Shown here one piece after another: positions 10,044 to 50,118 of a stretch of 64,000 nt of DNA. Position 1 is the first letter of the stretch; each line of letters starts with the position of its first letter. The notes below the pieces were generated by a model. The model did not search any database. It saw only the letters and a program-made list of their open reading frames with translations, and was not told the DNA's origin. A program made the translations under genes and the position numbers. Source of the stretch: Escherichia coli (GTDB taxonomy: Bacteria > Pseudomonadota > Gammaproteobacteria > Enterobacterales > Enterobacteriaceae); NCBI RefSeq assembly GCF_011045215.1, contig NZ_CP049201.1; one strand, 5' to 3'.

Positions 10044-10119
10044 GCCGATATAGCTCAGTTGGTAGAGCAGCGCATTCGTAATGCGAAGGTCGTAGGTTCG
10101 ACTCCTATTATCGGCACCA
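10044..10119 (+). tRNA. thrW: tRNA-Thr (anticodon CGT)
   Basis: 76 nt GCCGATATAGCTCAGTTGGTAGAGCAGCGCATTCGTAATGCG...TCGGCACCA with anticodon loop tCGTa. Confidence 0.9.
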
Positions 10120-10122
10120 TTT
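10074..10122. repeat. attL: 49-bp tRNA 3-prime segment, directly repeated at 50070-50118
   Basis: Exact 49-bp match ATTCGTAATGCGAAGGTCGTAGGTTCGACTCCTATTATCGGCACCATTT at both positions. Confidence 0.75.
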
Positions 10123-10133
10123 AAATCAATAAG

Positions 10134-11297
10134 TTACACATCATTAGTACCTTCCTTATTTTTTGACTGGGACAAATTTGGGACCGATGGGTTCAGGATC
10201 GAGTCTATTTGCCGTGCGTGTTCGGTAAGGTGATTAGGTGCAAGGTGAGCATATCGACGAACCATTTCGATAGACTCCCAGCCTCCCATTTCCTGTAACA
10301 CTGACAACGGGACTCCGGCTTGAACCAGCCAACTTGCCCAGGTGTGTCTCAAGTCGTGAAATCTGAAATCATCAATACCAGCCCGTCTCAGCGCCGCTTT
10401 CCAGGCTGTGTTTGCGTCATACCGCATCTTCCTTACTGTTGGCGCTTTCGTTCCGTCTGGTTTGGTACAGCTTTCCTTGTACACAAATACCCAACGGTGA
10501 TGATTCCCGATTTGTTTTTTCAAAACGCGACATGCAGTATCATTCAGCGCAACGCCAATTGCGCGGTTTGATTTACTCTCTTCCGGGTTTATCCATGCCA
10601 CCCGGCGCTGCATGTCTATTTGTTGCCATTCAAGGTTGATGATGTTCGAGCGTCTTAAGCCTGTTGCCAGTGCAAATTCAACAACAGACTTTAATGGCTC
10701 CGGACATTCATCAATCAGCCTTTGTGCTTCATGGGGCTCCAGCCAGCGGATCCGTTTATTCTTTGGTTGAGGCACTTTAATAATTGGTGCCTTATCCAGC
10801 ATTTTCCATTCACGCTCTGCGGCTCTTAGTAGGGCCTTTATAAATGAAAGATGCGTAGCCTTCGTTGCAACGGACGCTGGTTTTGGCGTGTATTCTGGAA
10901 CAGGTTTCCCTTTTTTTCTGCATGCTTCTGCCCTGAGTCTCCAGTTTTCCTCATGACGCCGGTTCGTCATTTTCTGCATTGCTGAATAAATTTTTGATTC
11001 AGTAATGTCTCTTAGTTGCATTCCTGCGAAATGTTGAAGCCAGAATCCGATCCGGCTTTTGTCATCGTCCAGTGATTTTTTATGTGCTTTCTCTTCAAGC
11101 CACCTGACACACGCTTCCTCGAACGTTATATCAGGTATTTCACCAAGTTTGCTGACCCGCCATGCTTCAGCCTTTAGCTTGTCATGGAGTTCTGTCGCCT
11201 GCCTTTTGTCCTTTGTTCCAAGAGACTGTTTAAATCTTTTACCGTTCGGCAATGTGAAACTGGCGTACCATATTTCACCTCTGCGGAAGAGTGACAT
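10134..11297 (-). CDS. Phage integrase (tyrosine recombinase)
   Basis: C-terminal catalytic motif [10 protein letters not shown]...RRYAHL; adjacent to tRNA. Confidence 0.85.
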
Positions 11298-11527: not shown

Positions 11528-11829
11528 TTCACCTCTTGCTGTGACATTGTTGAAAAATGGATACCAGCTCGTTGCTGCCAGACGATCCAACCGAGAGTCA
11601 TATCCCATGCCATGTATTCGTTATTGCCGTTTTTTGCTCTCCGACGATCTACTAAGTCACCGAAACGCTTTTCCATGAATAATTCATAAGCTTCGCGTTC
11701 ATCTGGTTCTACTTCCAGAGATAGGAGTGCGATTTCATAAGCACGGCGCTCAATATCGTCTCGCACGTCAAGGCTGCTGATACGCTCTTTAATTTCTTTA
11801 ATCAGTTCTTTGTCGGTAAAAGTGGTCAT
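11524..11829 (-). CDS. Hypothetical phage early-left protein
   Basis: ORF in co-directional gene string. Confidence 0.35.
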   Translation of the reverse strand: MTTFTDKELIKEIKERISSLDVRDDIERRAYEIALLSLEVEPDEREAYELFMEKRFGDLVDRRRAKNGNNEYMAWDMTLGWIVWQQRAGIHFSTMSQQEVK

Positions 11830-12191
11830 TATGCTCCAGCCTCCGGTGCTTTTGGCATTACTGCCCAGTGAGTGATATTGACGTTTTCAAGGTCCCCGAC
11901 CTGAAATGTCCACTGCCATTCTCCGGTTTCTTTTTGTCCCCAGGTGTACCAGAGAGAACGCCAGCCAATTAGCCAGCCTTCTCCGTTAGCATCGAATAAC
12001 AAAACACTTTCATTTGCTGGTGGCAGTTCAGTTGACACTGGTATTACTTTGTTTTCCTGTGCTGCACATTTAGCTTCAAGCGCATCGAATTTACGCACCA
12101 GGTATTCAGCATCTGTTTCATTTACTTTCAGATCTCGCGGTACACATCTCCCACGAAGAAACCCTTCCATTTCGAAAACATTCATGCGCAT
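11829..12191 (-). CDS. Hypothetical phage early-left protein
   Basis: ORF, start/stop overlap with neighbours. Confidence 0.35.
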   Translation of the reverse strand: MRMNVFEMEGFLRGRCVPRDLKVNETDAEYLVRKFDALEAKCAAQENKVIPVSTELPPANESVLLFDANGEGWLIGWRSLWYTWGQKETGEWQWTFQVGDLENVNITHWAVMPKAPEAGA

Positions 12192-14975: not shown

Positions 14976-15123
14976 TTCATACACCTGCTTTAACATGAGT
15001 GCCTAGTGGCACAACATGACTCAACGAATCATCCTGGATTTCATATGCCCCAGGCGGCTACTTCGTGGGCGTCCTGCCTGTTCGTTGTTTCTTTTGGGTA
15101 CATTATGTATCTCAAAGGTACAT

Positions 15124-15146
15124 TGTCAAGTATAAAAAAACCTGCC
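15124..15146 (-). terminator. Terminator downstream of cI-like repressor gene
   Basis: Stem AACCTGC-cgaa-GCAGGTT followed by T-run on minus strand. Confidence 0.45.
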
Positions 15147-15168
15147 GAAGCAGGTTCATAAACATTGA

Positions 15169-15843
15169 TTAGGCTTTGATTTTGTATCTTCTTGGTTTTC
15201 CTGAGAAAATCACTGTACCAATTATAGAGCAATTACCGTTGATCTTAATGTAAGGCTCAGGCCAGTTTGGGTTTAACGCTTTGAGATAACGCTGTGTCCC
15301 ATCTTCTATCAACCTTTTGAAGGTGGTTTCGCCTGTATCGTGCATCAATGCAATAACGTCGTCACCGTGGCAGGCAGGTACTTCAGGATCGACAAAAATC
15401 ATGTCTCCCGGGCGGTACTCATCAATCATTGAATCACCTATCACCCGCAAGATATAAGTCATTTCCCCACAGGGTACAGGGCAGGGATACGTTTCTGCTG
15501 TGCTCAAATCAACCTCAGAATATCCAACTTCTTTCCATGCTCCGGCCTGTACCCATGATATGACAGGGACTAATGTGATTTGTTTATTAGTGATTGAAAC
15601 ATCAGGTTTTTTTGTGATGTTCGTTGTCTGGTGTTCTTGATCGAGCCATCCGACAGGCAGGTCGAAACATTTTTCGATGTGTCGTGCCATGCTGTCACCG
15701 ATATTTTTAGTAGCACCATCTCCCATAAACCTGCTGGTCTGGGTTGGCTCGCGATCAATCATAGTGGCAAAGGAAGAATTCCCGCCAACACCATCTCTCA
15801 GTTTTCTGGCGTTAGACCGCCGGATGTCATGGATTGTTTTCAT
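15169..15843 (-). CDS. CI-like repressor (HTH plus LexA-like S24 autopeptidase domain)
   Basis: N-terminal HTH-like region and C-terminal S24-like region; divergent from cro-like gene. Confidence 0.75.
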   Translation of the reverse strand: MKTIHDIRRSNARKLRDGVGGNSSFATMIDREPTQTSRFMGDGATKNIGDSMARHIEKCFDLPVGWLDQEHQTTNITKKPDVSITNKQITLVPVISWVQAGAWKEVGYSEVDLSTAETYPCPVPCGEMTYILRVIGDSMIDEYRPGDMIFVDPEVPACHGDDVIALMHDTGETTFKRLIEDGTQRYLKALNPNWPEPYIKINGNCSIIGTVIFSGKPRRYKIKA

Positions 15844-15858
15844 AACGAAATTAAAACC

Positions 15859-15928
15859 CTTGTACCGTTAAGGTACAAGTATCTTGAAGGTTCATTTCAA
15901 TCATGTAATATGTACACCGGAGGTACAT
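15859..15928. promoter_or_regulatory. Immunity-region operators with GTAC-core palindromes
   Basis: CTTGTACCgttaaGGTACAAG and ATGTACaccggagGTACAT between divergent cI and cro. Confidence 0.55.
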
Positions 15929-15933
15929 ATTGT

Positions 15934-16134
15934 ATGAAAGCGTATTGGGACTCTTTAACCAAAGAACAGCAGGGCGAGTTGGCCGGAAAAGTTGGCTCAA
16001 CACCTGGCTACTTACGGCTGGTTTTCAATGGCTATAAAAAAGCCAGTTTTGTGCTGGCTAAAAAACTTGAGCAATGCACGTCAGGTGCAATTACGAAATC
16101 TGACTTAAGACCGGATATCTATCCGAAAGATTAG
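15934..16134 (+). CDS. Cro-like regulator
   Basis: 66 aa ORF divergent from repressor with good RBS; ORF track begins further upstream. Confidence 0.55.
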   Translation: MKAYWDSLTKEQQGELAGKVGSTPGYLRLVFNGYKKASFVLAKKLEQCTSGAITKSDLRPDIYPKD

Positions 16135-16165
16135 CAGAACACTTTCAATTTTTAACCACAGAACG

Positions 16166-16729
16166 ATGAGGCTAACCGTGGGTAAGCATCACTGGAAAAT
16201 AGAAAAACAGCCTGAGTGGTACGTGAAAGCTGTCAGAAAAACTATCGCGGCGTTGCCGGGTGGTTACGCTGAAGCGGCTGACTGGCTCGATGTAACAGAA
16301 AACGCTTTATTCAACCGCCTTCGTGCAGATGGCGATCAGATTTTCCCGCTGGGATGGGCAATGGTTTTACAGCGTGCTGGTGGCACTCACTTCATTGCTG
16401 ATGCTGTGGCGCAGTCTGCAAATGGCGTCTTTGTGTCTCTTCCTGACGTCGAGGATGTGGACAACGCCGATATCAACCAACGCCTGCTGGAAGTCATTGA
16501 ACAGATCGGCAGTTATTCAAAACAGATTCGTTCAGCAATTGAAGACGGTGTAGTGGAACCGCATGAGAAGACAGCAATTAACGACGAGCTGTACCTCTCA
16601 ATTTCGAAGCTGCAGGAGCATGCAGCACTGGTCTACAAAATTTTTTGCATTTCAGAAAGTAATGACGCCCGCGAGTGTGCAGCTCCGGGCGCCGTGGCGT
16701 GTCGTGACTGTGGAGAAACTAACGCATGA
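16166..16729 (+). CDS. Putative CII-like regulatory protein
   Basis: Position after cro; family assignment tentative. Confidence 0.35.
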
Positions 16730-17064
16730 ACAGTTTAACAACACACTACCGTCGCTCGCAACTGATTGCGCTTCCTGTACCGGGTGGAAAAGCGAAGGTG
16801 GAGTATTGCTATGCAGTAAATGTACCAGGTGACAGGGAAATTGTAACCCACAGCTTTGCAGAGTGGGCTGTGGGTGATTTCAACCGGCAGAAGGAGACAG
16901 TCCTTTGCGACAAGTTAACCGCTGGTTCAAAGATCACTACGGAGTGCCCGTCAGAGTCATTCGTTGGGAGCCGGAAACACAACGTGTTATCTACCTCCGC
17001 GAAGGCTATGAGCATGAGTGCTTCAGCCCGCTCGAACAGTTTCGTCGTAAATTCAGGGAAATAG
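16726..17064 (+). CDS. Hypothetical phage protein
   Basis: 112 aa ORF with overlapping start. Confidence 0.35.
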
Positions 17065-17073
17065 AGGTCGGTC

Positions 17074-18015
17074 ATGAGCACTAAATTAACCGGCTATGTA
17101 TGGGATGGTTGCGCTGCATCAGGCATGAAATTATCCAGCGTGGCAATTATGGCCCGCCTGGCTGATTTCAGTAATGACGAAGGTGTGTGCTGGCCATCAA
17201 TTGAAACCATTGCCCGCCAGATTGGCGCGGGAATGAGTACCGTCAGAACGGCTATCGCACGGCTGGAAGCAGAAGGCTGGTTAACGCGTAAGGCGCGTCG
17301 CCAGGGTAACCGCAATGCGTCGAATGTTTATCAGCTTAACGTTGCGAAGCTTCAGGCAGCGGCATTTTCTCAACTGTCAGATTCTGACCCGTCAAAATCT
17401 GACGCATCAAAATCTGACCCGTCAAAATTTGATGCGTCGAAATCTGGCAAAAAAGCGGGTTTTCACCCGTCAGAATCTGGCGGGGATCCGTCAGTAAAAT
17501 CAAAACATGATCCGTCAGATAAAAAAACTTCTCGTCCGGACGCTTCGCAACCGGACACGCAGACGGCTGAACAGGAGTTTTTAACTCGCCATCCTGATGC
17601 GGTTGTATTCAGCCCTAAAAAGCGCCAGTGGGGAACGCAGGATGATTTGACCTGCGCACAGTGGCTCTGGAAAAAAATCATCGCCCTGTACGAGCAGGCC
17701 GCCGAATGTGACGGCGAGGTGGTTCGTCCCAAAGAACCGAACTGGACAGCCTGGGCAAACGAAATTCGCCTGATGTGTGTGCAGGATGGTCGTACTCATA
17801 AACAAATCTGCGAGATGTACAGCCGCGTCAGTCGCGATCCGTTCTGGTGCCGTAACGTGCTCAGCCCGTCGAAGCTGCGGGAAAAATGGGATGAGCTTTC
17901 CCTGCGCTTATCGCCGTCCGTCAGCACGTACACCGAAAAACGCGAAGACCCGTACTTCAAAGCCAGTTACGACAACGTGGACTACAGCCAGATCCCGGCA
18001 GGATTCAGGGGGTGA
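17074..18015 (+). CDS. Replication initiation protein (lambda O-like)
   Basis: N-terminal HTH region, internal low-complexity repeats encoded by iteron DNA. Confidence 0.55.
   Translation: MSTKLTGYVWDGCAASGMKLSSVAIMARLADFSNDEGVCWPSIETIARQIGAGMSTVRTAIARLEAEGWLTRKARRQGNRNASNVYQLNVAKLQAAAFSQLSDSDPSKSDASKSDPSKFDASKSGKKAGFHPSESGGDPSVKSKHDPSDKKTSRPDASQPDTQTAEQEFLTRHPDAVVFSPKKRQWGTQDDLTCAQWLWKKIIALYEQAAECDGEVVRPKEPNWTAWANEIRLMCVQDGRTHKQICEMYSRVSRDPFWCRNVLSPSKLREKWDELSLRLSPSVSTYTEKREDPYFKASYDNVDYSQIPAGFRG
17377..17520. repeat. Putative phage replication origin iterons inside O-like gene
   Basis: Repeated TCAAAATCTGAC / CCGTCAGAATCTG units followed by A-rich tract. Confidence 0.5.
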
Positions 18016-18506
18016 GCATGAGTCTTTTGAATGACGTTCAGAAATTCATTGAAGCCCATCCGGGCTGTACTTCCGGAGATATTGCGGATGCTTTTGCCGG
18101 TTACTCACGGCAGCGCGTTCTGCAGTCAGCAAGCAAGTTACGTCAGAGTGGGCGTGTGGCTCACCGTTGTGAAGGAGATACACGCAGACATTTCCCGCGC
18201 CTGACTGAGAGAGCGCAGGAACCGGAACCACAACCAGTTCGTGAAACCAGACCTGTGCGCAATTTCTATGTCGGCACTAACGATCCCCGTGTGATTTTGT
18301 GCCTGACCCGCCAGGCGGAAGAACTGGAGTCCAGGGGCTTATACCGTCGTGCTGCAACCGTGTGGATGGCGGCATTCCGTGAAAGCCACTCCCAGCCAGA
18401 ACGAAACAATTTTCTGGCGCGTCGTGAGCGGTGCTTACGGAAAAGCAGCAAGCGCGCTGCATCGGGTGAAGAGTGGTATCTGTCAGGGAATTACGTGGGG
18501 GCTTAA
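18012..18506 (+). CDS. Hypothetical phage protein (possible PerC-like C-terminal region)
   Basis: 164 aa ORF; weak motif resemblance only. Confidence 0.35.
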   Translation: MSMSLLNDVQKFIEAHPGCTSGDIADAFAGYSRQRVLQSASKLRQSGRVAHRCEGDTRRHFPRLTERAQEPEPQPVRETRPVRNFYVGTNDPRVILCLTRQAEELESRGLYRRAATVWMAAFRESHSQPERNNFLARRERCLRKSSKRAASGEEWYLSGNYVGA

Positions 18507-19159
18507 TGAGTAATAAATATTGCCAGGCGCTGGTGGAACTGCGGAACAAACCAGCCCATGAACTGAAGGAAGTGGGCGATCAGTGGCGCACGCCGGACAA
18601 CATTTTCTGGGGAATTAACACCCTGTTTGGCCCGTTTGTTCTGGATCTGTTCACTGACGGTGATAACGCCAAATGTGCCGCGTATTACACGGCGGAAGAC
18701 AACGCGCTGGCGCATGACTGGTCAGAACGTCTTGCGGAGCTTAAAGGTGCTGCCTTTGGTAATCCCCCATACAGCCGCGCCAGTCAGCATGAGGGGCAAT
18801 ACATCACCGGCATGCGTTACATCATGAAACATGCCAGTGCCATGCGTGATAAGGGCGGGCGCTATGTTTTCCTGATCAAAGCTGCCACCAGCGAAGTGTG
18901 GTGGCCGGAAGATGCAGATCATATTGCTTTTATTCGCGGGCGTATTGGTTTTGAACTGCCTGTCTGGTTTATCCCGAAAGACGAGAAGCAGGTACCGACA
19001 GGAGCTTTTTTCGCTGGTGCTATTGCTGTTTTTGACAAGACCTGGAAGGGACCGGCAATCAGCTACATCGGGCGCGATGAACTTGAGGCATGTGGTGAGG
19101 CGTTTCTGGCGCAGGTTCGCCAGCAGGCGGAAAAACTGGTCAGGGAGATGGCGGCATGA
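18506..19159 (+). CDS. Phage DNA N6-adenine methyltransferase (Dam-like)
   Basis: NPPY motif (FGNPPYS); TAATG start overlap with previous gene. Confidence 0.7.
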   Translation: MSNKYCQALVELRNKPAHELKEVGDQWRTPDNIFWGINTLFGPFVLDLFTDGDNAKCAAYYTAEDNALAHDWSERLAELKGAAFGNPPYSRASQHEGQYITGMRYIMKHASAMRDKGGRYVFLIKAATSEVWWPEDADHIAFIRGRIGFELPVWFIPKDEKQVPTGAFFAGAIAVFDKTWKGPAISYIGRDELEACGEAFLAQVRQQAEKLVREMAA

Positions 19160-19482
19160 CGACGTTAACTCAATGCCAGCAGCAGGTGCTGGATATGCTG
19201 ATTTCTTATCAGAAAGAACGTGGCTTCCCGCCAACCAATCAGGAGGTGGCAACCATGCTGGGATACCGTTCGGTGAATGCAGCGGTGGAGCATCTTCGCG
19301 CACTGGAGAAAAAAGGCGTCATCACGATAAAGCGTGGCGTGGCCCGGGGGATAACGCTTCATACCGCGGTGAAGGACGACGACAGCGAGGCGGTCGGGAT
19401 TATCCGCGCACTGCTTGCCGGTGAGGAAAACGCAAGGCTGCGTGCAACCCACTGGTTACATGAGAGGGACCTGAAAGTATGA
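19156..19482 (+). CDS. LexA DNA-binding-domain-like protein
   Basis: N-terminal winged-helix-like region without peptidase domain. Confidence 0.4.
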   Translation: MTTLTQCQQQVLDMLISYQKERGFPPTNQEVATMLGYRSVNAAVEHLRALEKKGVITIKRGVARGITLHTAVKDDDSEAVGIIRALLAGEENARLRATHWLHERDLKV

Positions 19483-19868
19483 AGCTGATCCTGCCTTTTC
19501 CGCCCAGCGTGAACACGTACTGGCGACACCCCAACAAAGGGGCGTTTGCTGGTAAGAGCCTGATAAGCGCGGCGGGGCGAAAATTCCAGAGCGCGGCGTG
19601 CGCAGCAATAGTTGAGCAGTTACGTCGTCTGCCGAAACCAACGTCGGCACCTGCTTCAGTGGAGATCGTGTTGTTTCCTCCGGATAACCGGATCCGCGAT
19701 CTGGACAACTATAACAAGGCGCTGTTTGACGCCCTGACCCACGCGGGTGTGTGGGAAGACGACAGTCAGGTGAAAAGAATGCTGGTGGAGTGGGGGCCGG
19801 TTATCCCGGAAGGGAAGGTCGAGATCACTATCAGTAAGTACGAGAAAACGGCGGGTGCAGCCGCCTGA
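19479..19868 (+). CDS. rusA: Holliday junction resolvase RusA
   Basis: 129 aa ORF with RusA-like sequence; typical nin-region position. Confidence 0.65.
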   Translation: MKLILPFPPSVNTYWRHPNKGAFAGKSLISAAGRKFQSAACAAIVEQLRRLPKPTSAPASVEIVLFPPDNRIRDLDNYNKALFDALTHAGVWEDDSQVKRMLVEWGPVIPEGKVEITISKYEKTAGAAA

Positions 19869-20686: not shown

Positions 20687-21682
20687 GTGACCGTGAGAGC
20701 ACTACTGACCCCTGAAATTGCCCCGCGTATGGGGATCGTATTGTTCAGACCAGGTTCAGAGCTGATGCCCCTGTTTATGCAGGGGCGTGTACTGCTGGAG
20801 CCTGAGCCGGAACGTTATTCATCTTTCGCCAGTGGTGCCGTTCCCGCGGCATCACAACCGCTGGCGGATGATCCTGCTGTTCGGGCCGTGTTCCGCAATG
20901 AGGCAGTGATCCGTCGTGCTGGTGGCGTGGAATGTCTTGAAAGCTGGTTACTTCGTGAAAAAGGCTGCCAGTGGCCTCATTCCGACTGGCACAGCGAGAA
21001 CATGACCACAATGCGACACGCTCCGGGCGCAATCCGTCTGTGCTGGCACTGTGATAACCAGCTGCGCGATCAGTTCACGGAACGGCTGGAATCAATGGCA
21101 ACGGATAACTGTGCCCGCTGGGTGTTGTCTGTTGTGCGTCGGGATCTCGGTTTTGATGATAGTCACGTTGTGACAATGCCGGAACTGTGCTGGTGGCTGA
21201 TTCGTAATGACCTGGCGGATGCCTTACCGGAAAGTGCAGCCCGTAAGGCACTGAGATTACCAAAGCCTGTTGTGCCGTCTGTCACCCGGGAAAGTGACCT
21301 TGTGCCTTCGGTTCCTGCCACCAGCATCATCCAGGATAAGGCAAAAAAGGTGCTGGCGCTGAAAGTGGATCCGGAGTCGCCGGAGTCTTTTATGTTACGC
21401 CCAAAACGTCGCCGCTGGGTTAATGAGAAGTACACGCGCTGGGTTAAGACACAGCCGTGTGCATGTTGTGGAAAGCCCGCTGATGATCCCCACCACCTGA
21501 TAGGCCACGGTCAGGGGGGAATGGGTACAAAAGCGCATGACCTCTTTGTGTTGCCTTTGTGCAGAAAGCATCACGACGAGCTGCATGCGGATACCGTGGC
21601 ATTTGAAGAGAAGTATGGCTCCCAGCTGGAGCTGATATTTCGTTTTATCGATCGTGCGCTGGCAATTGGCGTGCTGGCCTGA
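20687..21682 (+). CDS. Phage protein with C-terminal Cys/His cluster (NinG/DUF-like)
   Basis: CCGKPADDPHHLIGHG...CRKHHDELH motif; family uncertain. Confidence 0.4.
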   Translation: MTVRALLTPEIAPRMGIVLFRPGSELMPLFMQGRVLLEPEPERYSSFASGAVPAASQPLADDPAVRAVFRNEAVIRRAGGVECLESWLLREKGCQWPHSDWHSENMTTMRHAPGAIRLCWHCDNQLRDQFTERLESMATDNCARWVLSVVRRDLGFDDSHVVTMPELCWWLIRNDLADALPESAARKALRLPKPVVPSVTRESDLVPSVPATSIIQDKAKKVLALKVDPESPESFMLRPKRRRWVNEKYTRWVKTQPCACCGKPADDPHHLIGHGQGGMGTKAHDLFVLPLCRKHHDELHADTVAFEEKYGSQLELIFRFIDRALAIGVLA

Positions 21683-21696
21683 TTTGGTGGAGAAAG

Positions 21697-22065
21697 TTGA
21701 TGCGTGATATTCAGATGGTTCTTGAGCGTTGGGGAGCATGGGCGGCGAGTGATAGTTCAGGCGTTGACTATTCACCTATAGCTGCTGGGTTTAAGGGACT
21801 TCTTCCCTATACCAGCAAGAAACGCTTGGCTTGTTCGGATAGTGATGCATTAATTATTGAAGGTTGTCTTGCTCGTCTAAAGCAAAAAAGACCTTATGAG
21901 CATTCGCTTCTTGTGGCACATTATTTATACAGAATATCCAAGCGTAAGATTGCAAAGGCGCGTGGAAAGGATGAGAAATTGATACGTATAGAAATACAGC
22001 TAGCCGAAGGATTTATTGATGGCTGCCTTTCCATGCTAGATCTAACATTAGATTTGGACGTTTAA
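21697..22065 (+). CDS. Putative late-gene antiterminator (Q-like)
   Basis: 122 aa ORF immediately upstream of the lysis region. Confidence 0.45.
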   Translation: MMRDIQMVLERWGAWAASDSSGVDYSPIAAGFKGLLPYTSKKRLACSDSDALIIEGCLARLKQKRPYEHSLLVAHYLYRISKRKIAKARGKDEKLIRIEIQLAEGFIDGCLSMLDLTLDLDV

Positions 22066-22093: not shown

Positions 22094-23425
22094 TTACTGG
22101 ATGAATGACATTTGATTAATATATTTTATCAATAACTCTCTGGGTGTAGTACTCCAAAAATTTAGGTGTTCATAATCAGTATAAACATTGGTGAATTTTT
22201 TAAGTTCTTCATCACTTTTAGGGGCAAATCGCTCATTAAGAGTAATACTGTCTTTAATTATTCCGAAGAATACAATAGATATTTCAGGAATTTGCGATCT
22301 TCTCTCATAAGAATAAGGTATTTCTTTTATGTTAAGCAGATCTGCTAAATGAGATATAGATTCTGCGGTAATTTCTTGTTTTAGTTTTTCCTTGTCACCA
22401 AAGCAATGTATGAAGACAGCTACGACAAAGATCTTATTTATTAAAGGATCACTGCTTTTGTACTCATCGTCGTTTAATAGTTGAAAAATGTTAAGATTGC
22501 GTGAAAAAGTTTGTGTTTCACGTAAGGATAAGTTGGTTCGTTGAATTAAATCACGGATAAATCTACCAGATAAACTATTAATTTCATTTAATGATTTTGT
22601 CTTGTCTACAAGGTAATTCCAATATATAACAGATGTTTTACATACGACGTGACCATTTATTAAACATGTGTCTGGAAGCGTGATGGTATATTTTATAAAC
22701 TTGTCAAGATACTTTTGTGAGTTAATACTATAACCATAAATATGATTTATCGATGCTTTTAATTGTTCTGTGTTTGTAACTAAAATAAAAAAGACATTAT
22801 TGATGTCAAAAATGTGTTTTATTGTTTCAATGACATTTGTTGAAAAACTCGGCTTACATCGGTCTAATTCATCAATTATAATTACTATCTTTTGACTTTC
22901 TGAAATGCTTTCGATGCAAGATTTAAGTGAATTTATGTTTTTCTCTGATTCCATATGGTCTTCAAGCAAATTTTCAATAGTCCCATCTATTGCTGCATTG
23001 CTTGCTTTCTTCATCGCATCTTGGAATTCTTCGGAAACTTCACTAGCCTCCTGTCGTAAAAACCAACCTGCACCAGCTTTTAGTACCGTTTTTAAACCAA
23101 AGCGAATTGCAGGAAGAGATCTCTTAATGAAGTGTTGTTTTTCTTCCTCAGGTAAAATGCTGGCAATTGCAGAGGTTATGAGAAGTAATGGAGATTCTGC
23201 ATGATCCCCTTTAAAGGCATCAATATAAACAACTTTAGATTCAGTTTCTTGCTCAATAATGAGATTTTTCAGTTTGATACTAAATTCTGTTTTCCCTGTT
23301 CCCCATGCGCCGTCTATTACCAGTGGTGAAATGTCTGCCTCTGGTTTTAGCAACTTGATGATATTTTCAGCGATGTTTCTGCGTTGGAACTCGTCACGTT
23401 CAGTGAAAGATAGTGTATCTAACAT
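22094..23425 (-). CDS. KAP-family P-loop NTPase (candidate phage-exclusion/abortive-infection protein)
   Basis: Walker A GAWGTGKT, Walker B IIIDELDRC; AT-rich; opposite strand in Q-to-lysis moron slot. Confidence 0.75.
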   Translation of the reverse strand: MLDTLSFTERDEFQRRNIAENIIKLLKPEADISPLVIDGAWGTGKTEFSIKLKNLIIEQETESKVVYIDAFKGDHAESPLLLITSAIASILPEEEKQHFIKRSLPAIRFGLKTVLKAGAGWFLRQEASEVSEEFQDAMKKASNAAIDGTIENLLEDHMESEKNINSLKSCIESISESQKIVIIIDELDRCKPSFSTNVIETIKHIFDINNVFFILVTNTEQLKASINHIYGYSINSQKYLDKFIKYTITLPDTCLINGHVVCKTSVIYWNYLVDKTKSLNEINSLSGRFIRDLIQRTNLSLRETQTFSRNLNIFQLLNDDEYKSSDPLINKIFVVAVFIHCFGDKEKLKQEITAESISHLADLLNIKEIPYSYERRSQIPEISIVFFGIIKDSITLNERFAPKSDEELKKFTNVYTDYEHLNFWSTTPRELLIKYINQMSFIQ

Positions 23426-50069: not shown

Positions 50070-50118
50070 ATTCGTAATGCGAAGGTCGTAGGTTCGACTC
50101 CTATTATCGGCACCATTT
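50070..50118. repeat. attR of prophage / attL of downstream element: second copy of 49-bp tRNA-Thr 3-prime segment
   Basis: Exact repeat of 10074-10122. Confidence 0.75.

Follow-up and report, generated by a model that had tools for sequence, protein, structure and literature searches.

A gene in the 64,000-nucleotide stretch of Escherichia coli DNA analysed here (hereafter the window; contig NZ_CP049201.1, assembly GCF_011045215.1) very probably encodes a stand-alone N6-adenine DNA methyltransferase of the phage family that includes the enzymes of T1, HP1 and VT2. We read it as an accessory gene of the early rightward operon of a prophage, whose 217-aa product would modify phage DNA in a GATC-like context as a defence against restriction, and which would stay silent in the lysogen. 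The gene is already known: it is named dam in phage SfV, it is annotated by RefSeq and it is very common among the prophages of E. coli and Shigella. Its importance beyond correct annotation is little, as a textbook type of phage orphan methyltransferase.

The assignment to the family comes from profile searches. In Pfam the protein matches PF05869, "DNA N-6-adenine-methyltransferase (Dam)", at 156 bits (E=1e-45, cutoff 28.1) over profile positions 3-167 of 169, and at E<=0.01 this was the only family found: the search returned no other methyltransferase family, with neither PF02086 (alpha-class Dam) nor any beta-class model nor MT-A70 being matched, and the motif of the protein is NPPY, not DPPW. 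The NCBIfam equivalog TIGR01712, "phage N-6-adenine-methyltransferase", is covered completely (positions 1-165 of 165; 256.5 bits, E=8e-77, cutoff 97.05), an equivalog status that says nothing on sequence specificity. PHROG 111, "DNA methyltransferase", is matched too, as is the PADLOC model "Type II methyltransferase", at full length and with 522 bits. The first-pass annotation, made from the sequence before these searches, had described a Dam-like N6-adenine methyltransferase; PF05869 and TIGR01712, the motif and the structure model bear out the methyltransferase, but it is not of the alpha class and "Dam-like" applies in the Pfam sense only. The protein is a member of the small T1/HP1/VT2 phage 'Dam' family, and the label "Dam" should not be taken here as homology to the host Dam.

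The NPPY motif reported in the same annotation is real. It corresponds to catalytic motif IV, N86-P87-P88-Y89 (codons AAT CCC CCA TAC), and an alignment of 43 homologues shows no variation at P87, P88, Y89 or S90 and almost none at N86; by analogy with the family, these residues would be the catalytic ones. The N-terminal motif D25-Q-W27-R-T29-P30 is conserved in the same homologues (D25, W27 and T29 invariant, P30 nearly invariant) and its DxWxTP pattern is also found in VT2 Dam (DCWQTP) and T1 Dam (DLWSTP), so that a role in binding the cofactor or the base may be proposed for it. D47, which lies within the first predicted strand (E44-50), is invariant in both alignments and aligns with the LD of VT2 Dam and T1 Dam, and is a candidate acidic residue for binding S-adenosylmethionine (SAM).

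Given that a PDB sequence search returned no match even at E<=10, structure prediction and a fold search were used instead. The high-confidence model is a single compact domain, in which the N-terminal motif is followed by strands 44-50 and 59-62, by strand 82-85 running into NPPY, by more strands and by a long C-terminal helix (190-216). NPPY comes straight after the N-terminal strands, and no separate target-recognition domain is seen in the model. The structural matches were, with their scores, the cap-adenosine N6-methyltransferase PCIF1 (10.8), E. coli Dam (10.3), M.TaqI (10.1), MmeI (9.9), T4 Dam (9.5), M.BseCI (9.3) and DpnM (9.1); Foldseek agrees with this search, at TM-scores of only ~0.45. 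Since the matches are to methyltransferase folds, the protein as modelled has the class I SAM-dependent methyltransferase fold, and the first reading, which would have fallen without such a fold, survives both the profile searches and the comparison of structures.

The gene is intact and lies inside an operon. The open reading frame (ORF) runs cleanly from an ATG at 18506 to a TGA at 19157-19159, exactly as first delimited. An alternative start, a GTG at position 18473, would lengthen the N-terminus by 11 aa; we preferred the ATG because the annotated homologues and the homologue alignment begin there. Its coding sequence overlaps those on both sides: the upstream PerC-family (YfdN-like) gene ends in a TAA that shares bases with the ATG of the methyltransferase (TAATG), and the methyltransferase's own TGA shares bases with the ATG (ATGA) of a downstream gene encoding only a LexA DNA-binding domain (LexA-DBD). 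It stands between the replication genes and Q, the position of the nin region in lambda, so that "prophage nin region" was a fair label.

The neighbours of the methyltransferase are a helix-turn-helix (HTH)/replication protein, the PerC-family and LexA-DBD proteins, RusA, KilA-N, DUF968 and Q. No restriction endonuclease was found among them, either from their Pfam content or with the PADLOC endonuclease models, and the only PADLOC models that the methyltransferase itself matches are single-protein ones (Type II methyltransferase and orphan methyltransferase), in agreement with the orphan status proposed at first. The DUF968 protein has a weak match to HNHc_6, a 'putative HNH nuclease' (26.9 bits, residues 253-310). 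As a hidden restriction partner it was discarded, being absent beside the homologues in VT2-Sakai, Eeyore, Kp4882-1 and Chi.

The gene is widespread and conserved. Identical DNA, annotated "phage N-6-adenine-methyltransferase" (WP_001355692.1), is found in enterotoxigenic E. coli (ETEC) H10407 (ETEC_RS01505) and in many other strains, and 2119 of the 5426 complete E. coli genomes (~40%) have a match, almost all at >=95% identity. Among phages, DNA identity is 99.4% to dam of SfV and SfII, 99.1% to mEp460 and 98-99% to several phages carrying Shiga toxin (Stx) genes of the Stx2a and Stx2c types, while the family as a whole has members in 586 phage records by tblastn, including Chi-like, Klebsiella, Vibrio, Staphylococcus and Lactococcus phages. 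The ratio of non-synonymous to synonymous substitution rates (dN/dS) is 0.04-0.09 against SfV, 1720a-02 and 720R4, and the gene is under purifying selection. It is nevertheless accessory and dispensable at the level of the module: SfIV has a replication module similar to that of SfII and SfV, yet lacks the methylase (PMC3851460).

Concerning the substrate, the relatives of the protein are informative. In P0133, P0126 and P0128 a single polypeptide joins the methyltransferase to C-5 cytosine DNA methyltransferase domains, in P0129 and P0143 PAPS_reduct is joined to Dam, and other relatives, in phage Eeyore and Klebsiella phage Kp4882-1, have C5-methyltransferase or C5-like genes as immediate neighbours; relatives 46-75% identical to our protein are often fused or adjacent in this way (loci L007, 2992-6256, and L008, 2234-3645). 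Several relatives also have long C-terminal extensions without a Pfam match. Because homologues are fused to or placed beside C5-methyltransferases, it can be argued that DNA is the substrate and that such proteins act in modification cassettes, and the fusions and adjacency with C5-methyltransferase and phosphoadenosine phosphosulfate (PAPS) reductase-like domains suggest, from sequence, that these cassettes are modular and carry several modifications.

The most plausible target is GATC. M.EcoVT2Dam is recorded as GATC-specific (PMC6602927) and M.EcoT1Dam as GATC-modifying (PMC4996451), and M.Btr190III, 35% identical to T1 Dam, was cloned and methylated GATC with substantial off-target activity (PMC4996451). 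Both of the former belong to the family, PF05869 scoring 218 bits with VT2-Sakai orf32, which we take to be M.EcoVT2Dam, and 236 bits with T1 Dam. We infer GATC as a best guess and do not count it as a result, because identity to T1 and VT2 Dam is only 24-31%. The frequency of the site was also considered as a clue and gave no hint either way, since 250 GATC sites were counted where 245.7 +/- 14.6 would be expected, and the density in the prophage equals that of the host flanks. Host Dam leaves about half of the GATC sites of lambda unmethylated (PMC3299994); there would therefore be a rationale for a GATC enzyme even in a Dam+ host.

Some observations, however, weigh against the reading proposed here. 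Identity to T1 Dam is only 24%, and to VT2 Dam 31%. Compared with VT2 Dam, the protein has extra segments at ~91-102 (a beta-hairpin in the model), at ~153-160 and in the C-terminal helix 190-216, and these could change specificity. In the literature searched we found no experiment on the SfV-type subfamily. In E. coli and Shigella, an enzyme methylating GATC would do what host Dam already does. The top structural match, by a negligible margin, is PCIF1, an RNA cap adenosine methyltransferase. Lastly, the GenBank record of SfV annotates a putative dam promoter inside orf40, upstream of the gene, and some expression in the lysogen is possible from it.

Some of these points favour the alternative that survives best, namely that the protein methylates adenine in DNA but has another or a strongly relaxed specificity, not plain GATC, which would protect the phage against a broader range of restriction. 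It is a less likely explanation: besides the low identity, the subfamily-specific insertions and helix and the redundancy of a GATC enzyme in a Dam+ host, it is favoured by the lack of a discrete target-recognition domain in a protein of 217 aa, by the off-target activity of M.Btr190III, a relative of T1 Dam (PMC4996451), and by the non-specific behaviour of other prophage methyltransferases, which are of different families. What opposes it is the GATC core shared by the family-tied enzymes of recorded specificity, T1 Dam, VT2 Dam and M.Btr190III (PMC6602927, PMC4996451). A related proposal, that the SfV-type subfamily (217 aa) recognises something other than plain GATC, either a new motif or a relaxed context, seems to us slightly less likely again; it rests on the hairpin insertion, the second loop insertion and the C-terminal helix, which are absent from both T1 and VT2 Dam. 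If it were true, a widespread and unrecognised source of phage DNA modification would be present in ~40% of complete E. coli genomes, and the C5-methyltransferase and PAPS-reductase-like fusions of the relatives would represent a modular anti-restriction cassette with multiple modifications.

The methyltransferase is probably silent in lysogens, as suggested by its position in an early operon controlled by the repressor. A promoter scan of the + strand from 15000 to 19868 turned up no site resembling a sigma-70 promoter, and comparable prophage methyltransferases, those of ST131 and Bibersteinia, were reported silent in their lysogens or hosts (PMC4659465; PMC4996451). The idea that host methylation is altered in lysogens, put forward in the first-pass annotation, is unlikely on these grounds and on account of the overlaps inside the rightward early operon. 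An epigenetic regulator acting in the lysogen, one that changes host or prophage expression or the frequency of induction, is an improbable explanation. The putative dam promoter of the SfV record would suit it, and a prophage methyltransferase of another family modulates the induction of an Stx prophage (PMC10810198); however, the bases of the window that match this promoter (~18415-18441) resemble the sigma-70 consensus poorly and the scan is empty there, the gene overlaps the codons of its neighbours within the repressor-controlled operon, and the ST131 and Bibersteinia enzymes were silent in the host.

It could also be supposed that the real substrate is RNA, or that a neighbouring protein is needed as a specificity subunit, as PNB-2 is for M.EcoPA8orf6770P (PMC10810198). 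The mRNA cap enzyme PCIF1 as top structural match and the overlap with the downstream LexA-DBD gene are in favour of this explanation, which we hold to be very improbable. The PerC-family and LexA-DBD genes are not kept beside the methyltransferase in distant relatives (Kp4882-1, Eeyore, Chi), and since both are missing from these contexts nothing suggests that they are subunits; both candidates were rejected as unsupported, their linkage not being conserved. Finally, that the gene is an inactive remnant, a passive passenger of the prophage, is scarcely credible: partial or apparently frameshifted copies of homologues are numerous in databases and a truncated homologue, yfdM, lies in the CPS-53 remnant of E. 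coli K-12, but here the reading frame is unbroken, none of the invariant residues is missing, dN/dS is low and the prophage has both attachment (att) sites and a full set of genes.

Database proteins that join the methyltransferase to its neighbours were also observed. They are rare: P0002-P0026 comprise proteins of 372-380 aa, mostly PerC plus methyltransferase (in P0002 it is Q that is joined to the methyltransferase), and proteins of 292-324 aa, methyltransferase plus LexA-DBD; most of them are one sequence on one to few contigs, at most 12. The three genes are in different frames and share 1-4 bases at their junctions, and for this reason such 'fusions' are probably frameshift errors or mutations and not real fusions.

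Our preferred reading, a GATC-like phage methyltransferase of the early operon, would work as follows. Once the repressor is inactivated, the rightward early transcript would include the methyltransferase together with the replication genes. Its translation would be coupled to that of its neighbours, as the overlaps between stop and start codons suggest. The protein would bind SAM in its N-terminal half, and the target adenine would be flipped into the NPPY pocket and methylated at N6. On replicating phage DNA, adenine methylation would thus be completed or extended before packaging, most likely at GATC or in a relaxed GATC-like context. The progeny genomes would leave fully methylated and would withstand methylation-sensitive restriction in the next host.

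A different label circulates for the same protein. The stand-alone methyltransferase is called 'phosphoadenosine phosphosulfate reductase' in NC_003444 (SfV), NC_021857 (SfII), NC_019716 (mEp460), NC_021315 (Chi) and other RefSeq records of phages. The label apparently stems from PHROG 33262 (495 positions), which our protein matches only at the C-terminal positions 283-492. Under this label our protein and its relatives match PF05869 only, and a 444-aa protein of phage Eeyore that bears it has no PAPS_reduct match in Pfam. For the stand-alone protein the label is unsupported by domain evidence and users should ignore it. A separate gene of the PAPS-reductase family does exist in the left operon of the ETEC H10407 prophage (L001, 12675-13553); when the two left operons were compared (window 11722-12184 with L001 12532-13546), the prophage of the window was found to lack it and to have in its place a DUF551 ORF (11829-12191, - strand).

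The prophage itself, SfV-like and about 40 kb long, is delimited by an exact direct repeat (Table 1). Its genes are ordered as integrase, left-operon genes, S24 repressor, CII-like, HTH/replication, PerC-family, methyltransferase, LexA-DBD, RusA, KilA-N, DUF968 and Q, followed by a KAP-family P-loop nucleoside triphosphatase (NTPase) on the opposite strand, the lysis genes, the terminase, an HK97-type head and a contractile tail. A prophage with a similar layout occupies this site in ETEC H10407, the two being ~98% identical in mosaic blocks, and the best complete E. coli genomes cover only ~91% of the prophage of the window at ~98% identity.

Table 1. Positions in the window of the methyltransferase gene, its motifs and the surrounding prophage features
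Feature	Positions	Strand	Remarks
tRNA-Thr(CGT)	10044-10119		3' end overlapped by attL; next to proBA
attL, left 49-bp direct repeat	10074..10122	.	Exact repeat found by script; left prophage end
Integrase	10134-11297	-	
S24 repressor	15169-15843	-	
HTH/replication protein gene	17074-18015		
PerC-family (YfdN-like) gene	18012..18506	+	PF06069, PHROG 1324, RefSeq annotation, sequence; upstream neighbour
Methyltransferase coding sequence	18506..19159	+	217 aa; PF05869 / TIGR01712; identical to WP_001355692.1
Codons of N-terminal motif D25-Q-W27-R-T29-P30	18578..18595	+	Conserved in 43 homologues
D47 codon	18644..18646	+	Invariant in both alignments
Codons of catalytic motif IV, N86-P87-P88-Y89	18761..18772	+	AAT CCC CCA TAC
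LexA-DBD gene	19156..19482	+	108 aa; PF01726, 69 bits; sequence; downstream neighbour
DUF968 protein	20687-21682	+	331 aa; 272 bits; Cys/His-rich C-terminus
Q	21697-22065		
KAP-family P-loop NTPase	22094-23425	-	443 aa; between Q and holin gene; typical moron position
attR, right 49-bp direct repeat	50070..50118	.	Right end of ~40-kb prophage

Several other genes of this region deserve a comment. Inside the replication/HTH gene, at 17383-17446, the 15-bp unit TCTGACCCGTCAAAA is repeated 4.3 times and encodes SDPSK/SDASK peptide repeats; these look like iterons of a replication origin lying within the gene of its initiator, an arrangement known from lambda O. The PerC-family protein is a putative transcriptional activator, and prophage-borne PerC/Pch homologues activate virulence loci in pathogenic E. 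coli. The LexA-DBD protein has no S24 peptidase domain and, judging from its sequence, could be a non-cleavable mimic of LexA on SOS boxes. In PADLOC the KAP NTPase scores 587 bits with PDC-S20, a candidate defence family, and less with PifA and QatA, and a promoter-like site lies just upstream of it (23454-23426, - strand).

We compared the methyltransferase with known systems, starting from the closest. ETEC_RS01505 of ETEC H10407 is 100% identical in DNA and shares the flanking genes. SfV Dam (orf41) has the same flanks (PerC/YfdN-like upstream, LexA-DBD and RusA downstream), and its gene differs from that of the window by one non-synonymous and three synonymous changes, nothing of substance. 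VT2-Sakai orf32 (175 aa), which we assigned to M.EcoVT2Dam from annotation and position, shares PF05869, the nin location in a lambdoid prophage, the orphan status and the DxWxTP, LD and NPPYS motifs; it differs in being 31% identical over 143 aa and 42 aa shorter, in lacking the ~91-102 hairpin insertion, the ~153-160 insertion and the long C-terminal helix, and in having ninB and ninE as neighbours. M.EcoT1Dam (phage T1 gp20, 237 aa) likewise shares PF05869, the motifs and the status of phage orphan, while at 24% identity it differs by an N-terminal extension of ~45 aa and by belonging to a lytic phage. E. coli Dam and T4 Dam, in contrast, are alpha-class enzymes of another family, PF02086, which also includes DpnM; the arrangement of that class, in which a target-recognition domain precedes motif IV, is not found in the present protein, and the structural alignment with E. 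coli Dam and T4 Dam spans only ~106-109 residues.

Other prophage or orphan enzymes were rejected as identities. Membership of the beta class, to which CcrM also belongs, is judged from a match to a profile of the class and from the arrangement of the motifs. M.EcoGI and M.EcoGII, like Hia5, are non-specific; they are prophage orphan enzymes producing N6-methyladenine, unexpressed or inactive in their native hosts, and M.EcoGII is of the beta class; the Hia5 group, whose members carry DPPY and FxGxG motifs (PMC3299994) and to which the prophage-borne M.HindVII/Hia5 belongs (PMC4996451), was taken as beta class too, and our protein matches no beta-class Pfam model. M.EcoGIX is plasmid-borne and specific for single strands. 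M.EcoGV and M.EcoPA8orf6770P resemble our case in that a prophage gene had a DNA adenine methyltransferase as its predicted product; they are not homologous to it at family level, both being MT-A70 enzymes with DPPW. It should be noted that M.EcoPA8orf6770P methylates 16S rRNA together with its partner PNB-2 (PMC10810198), a warning that prophage genes may be wrongly labelled "DNA adenine methylase".
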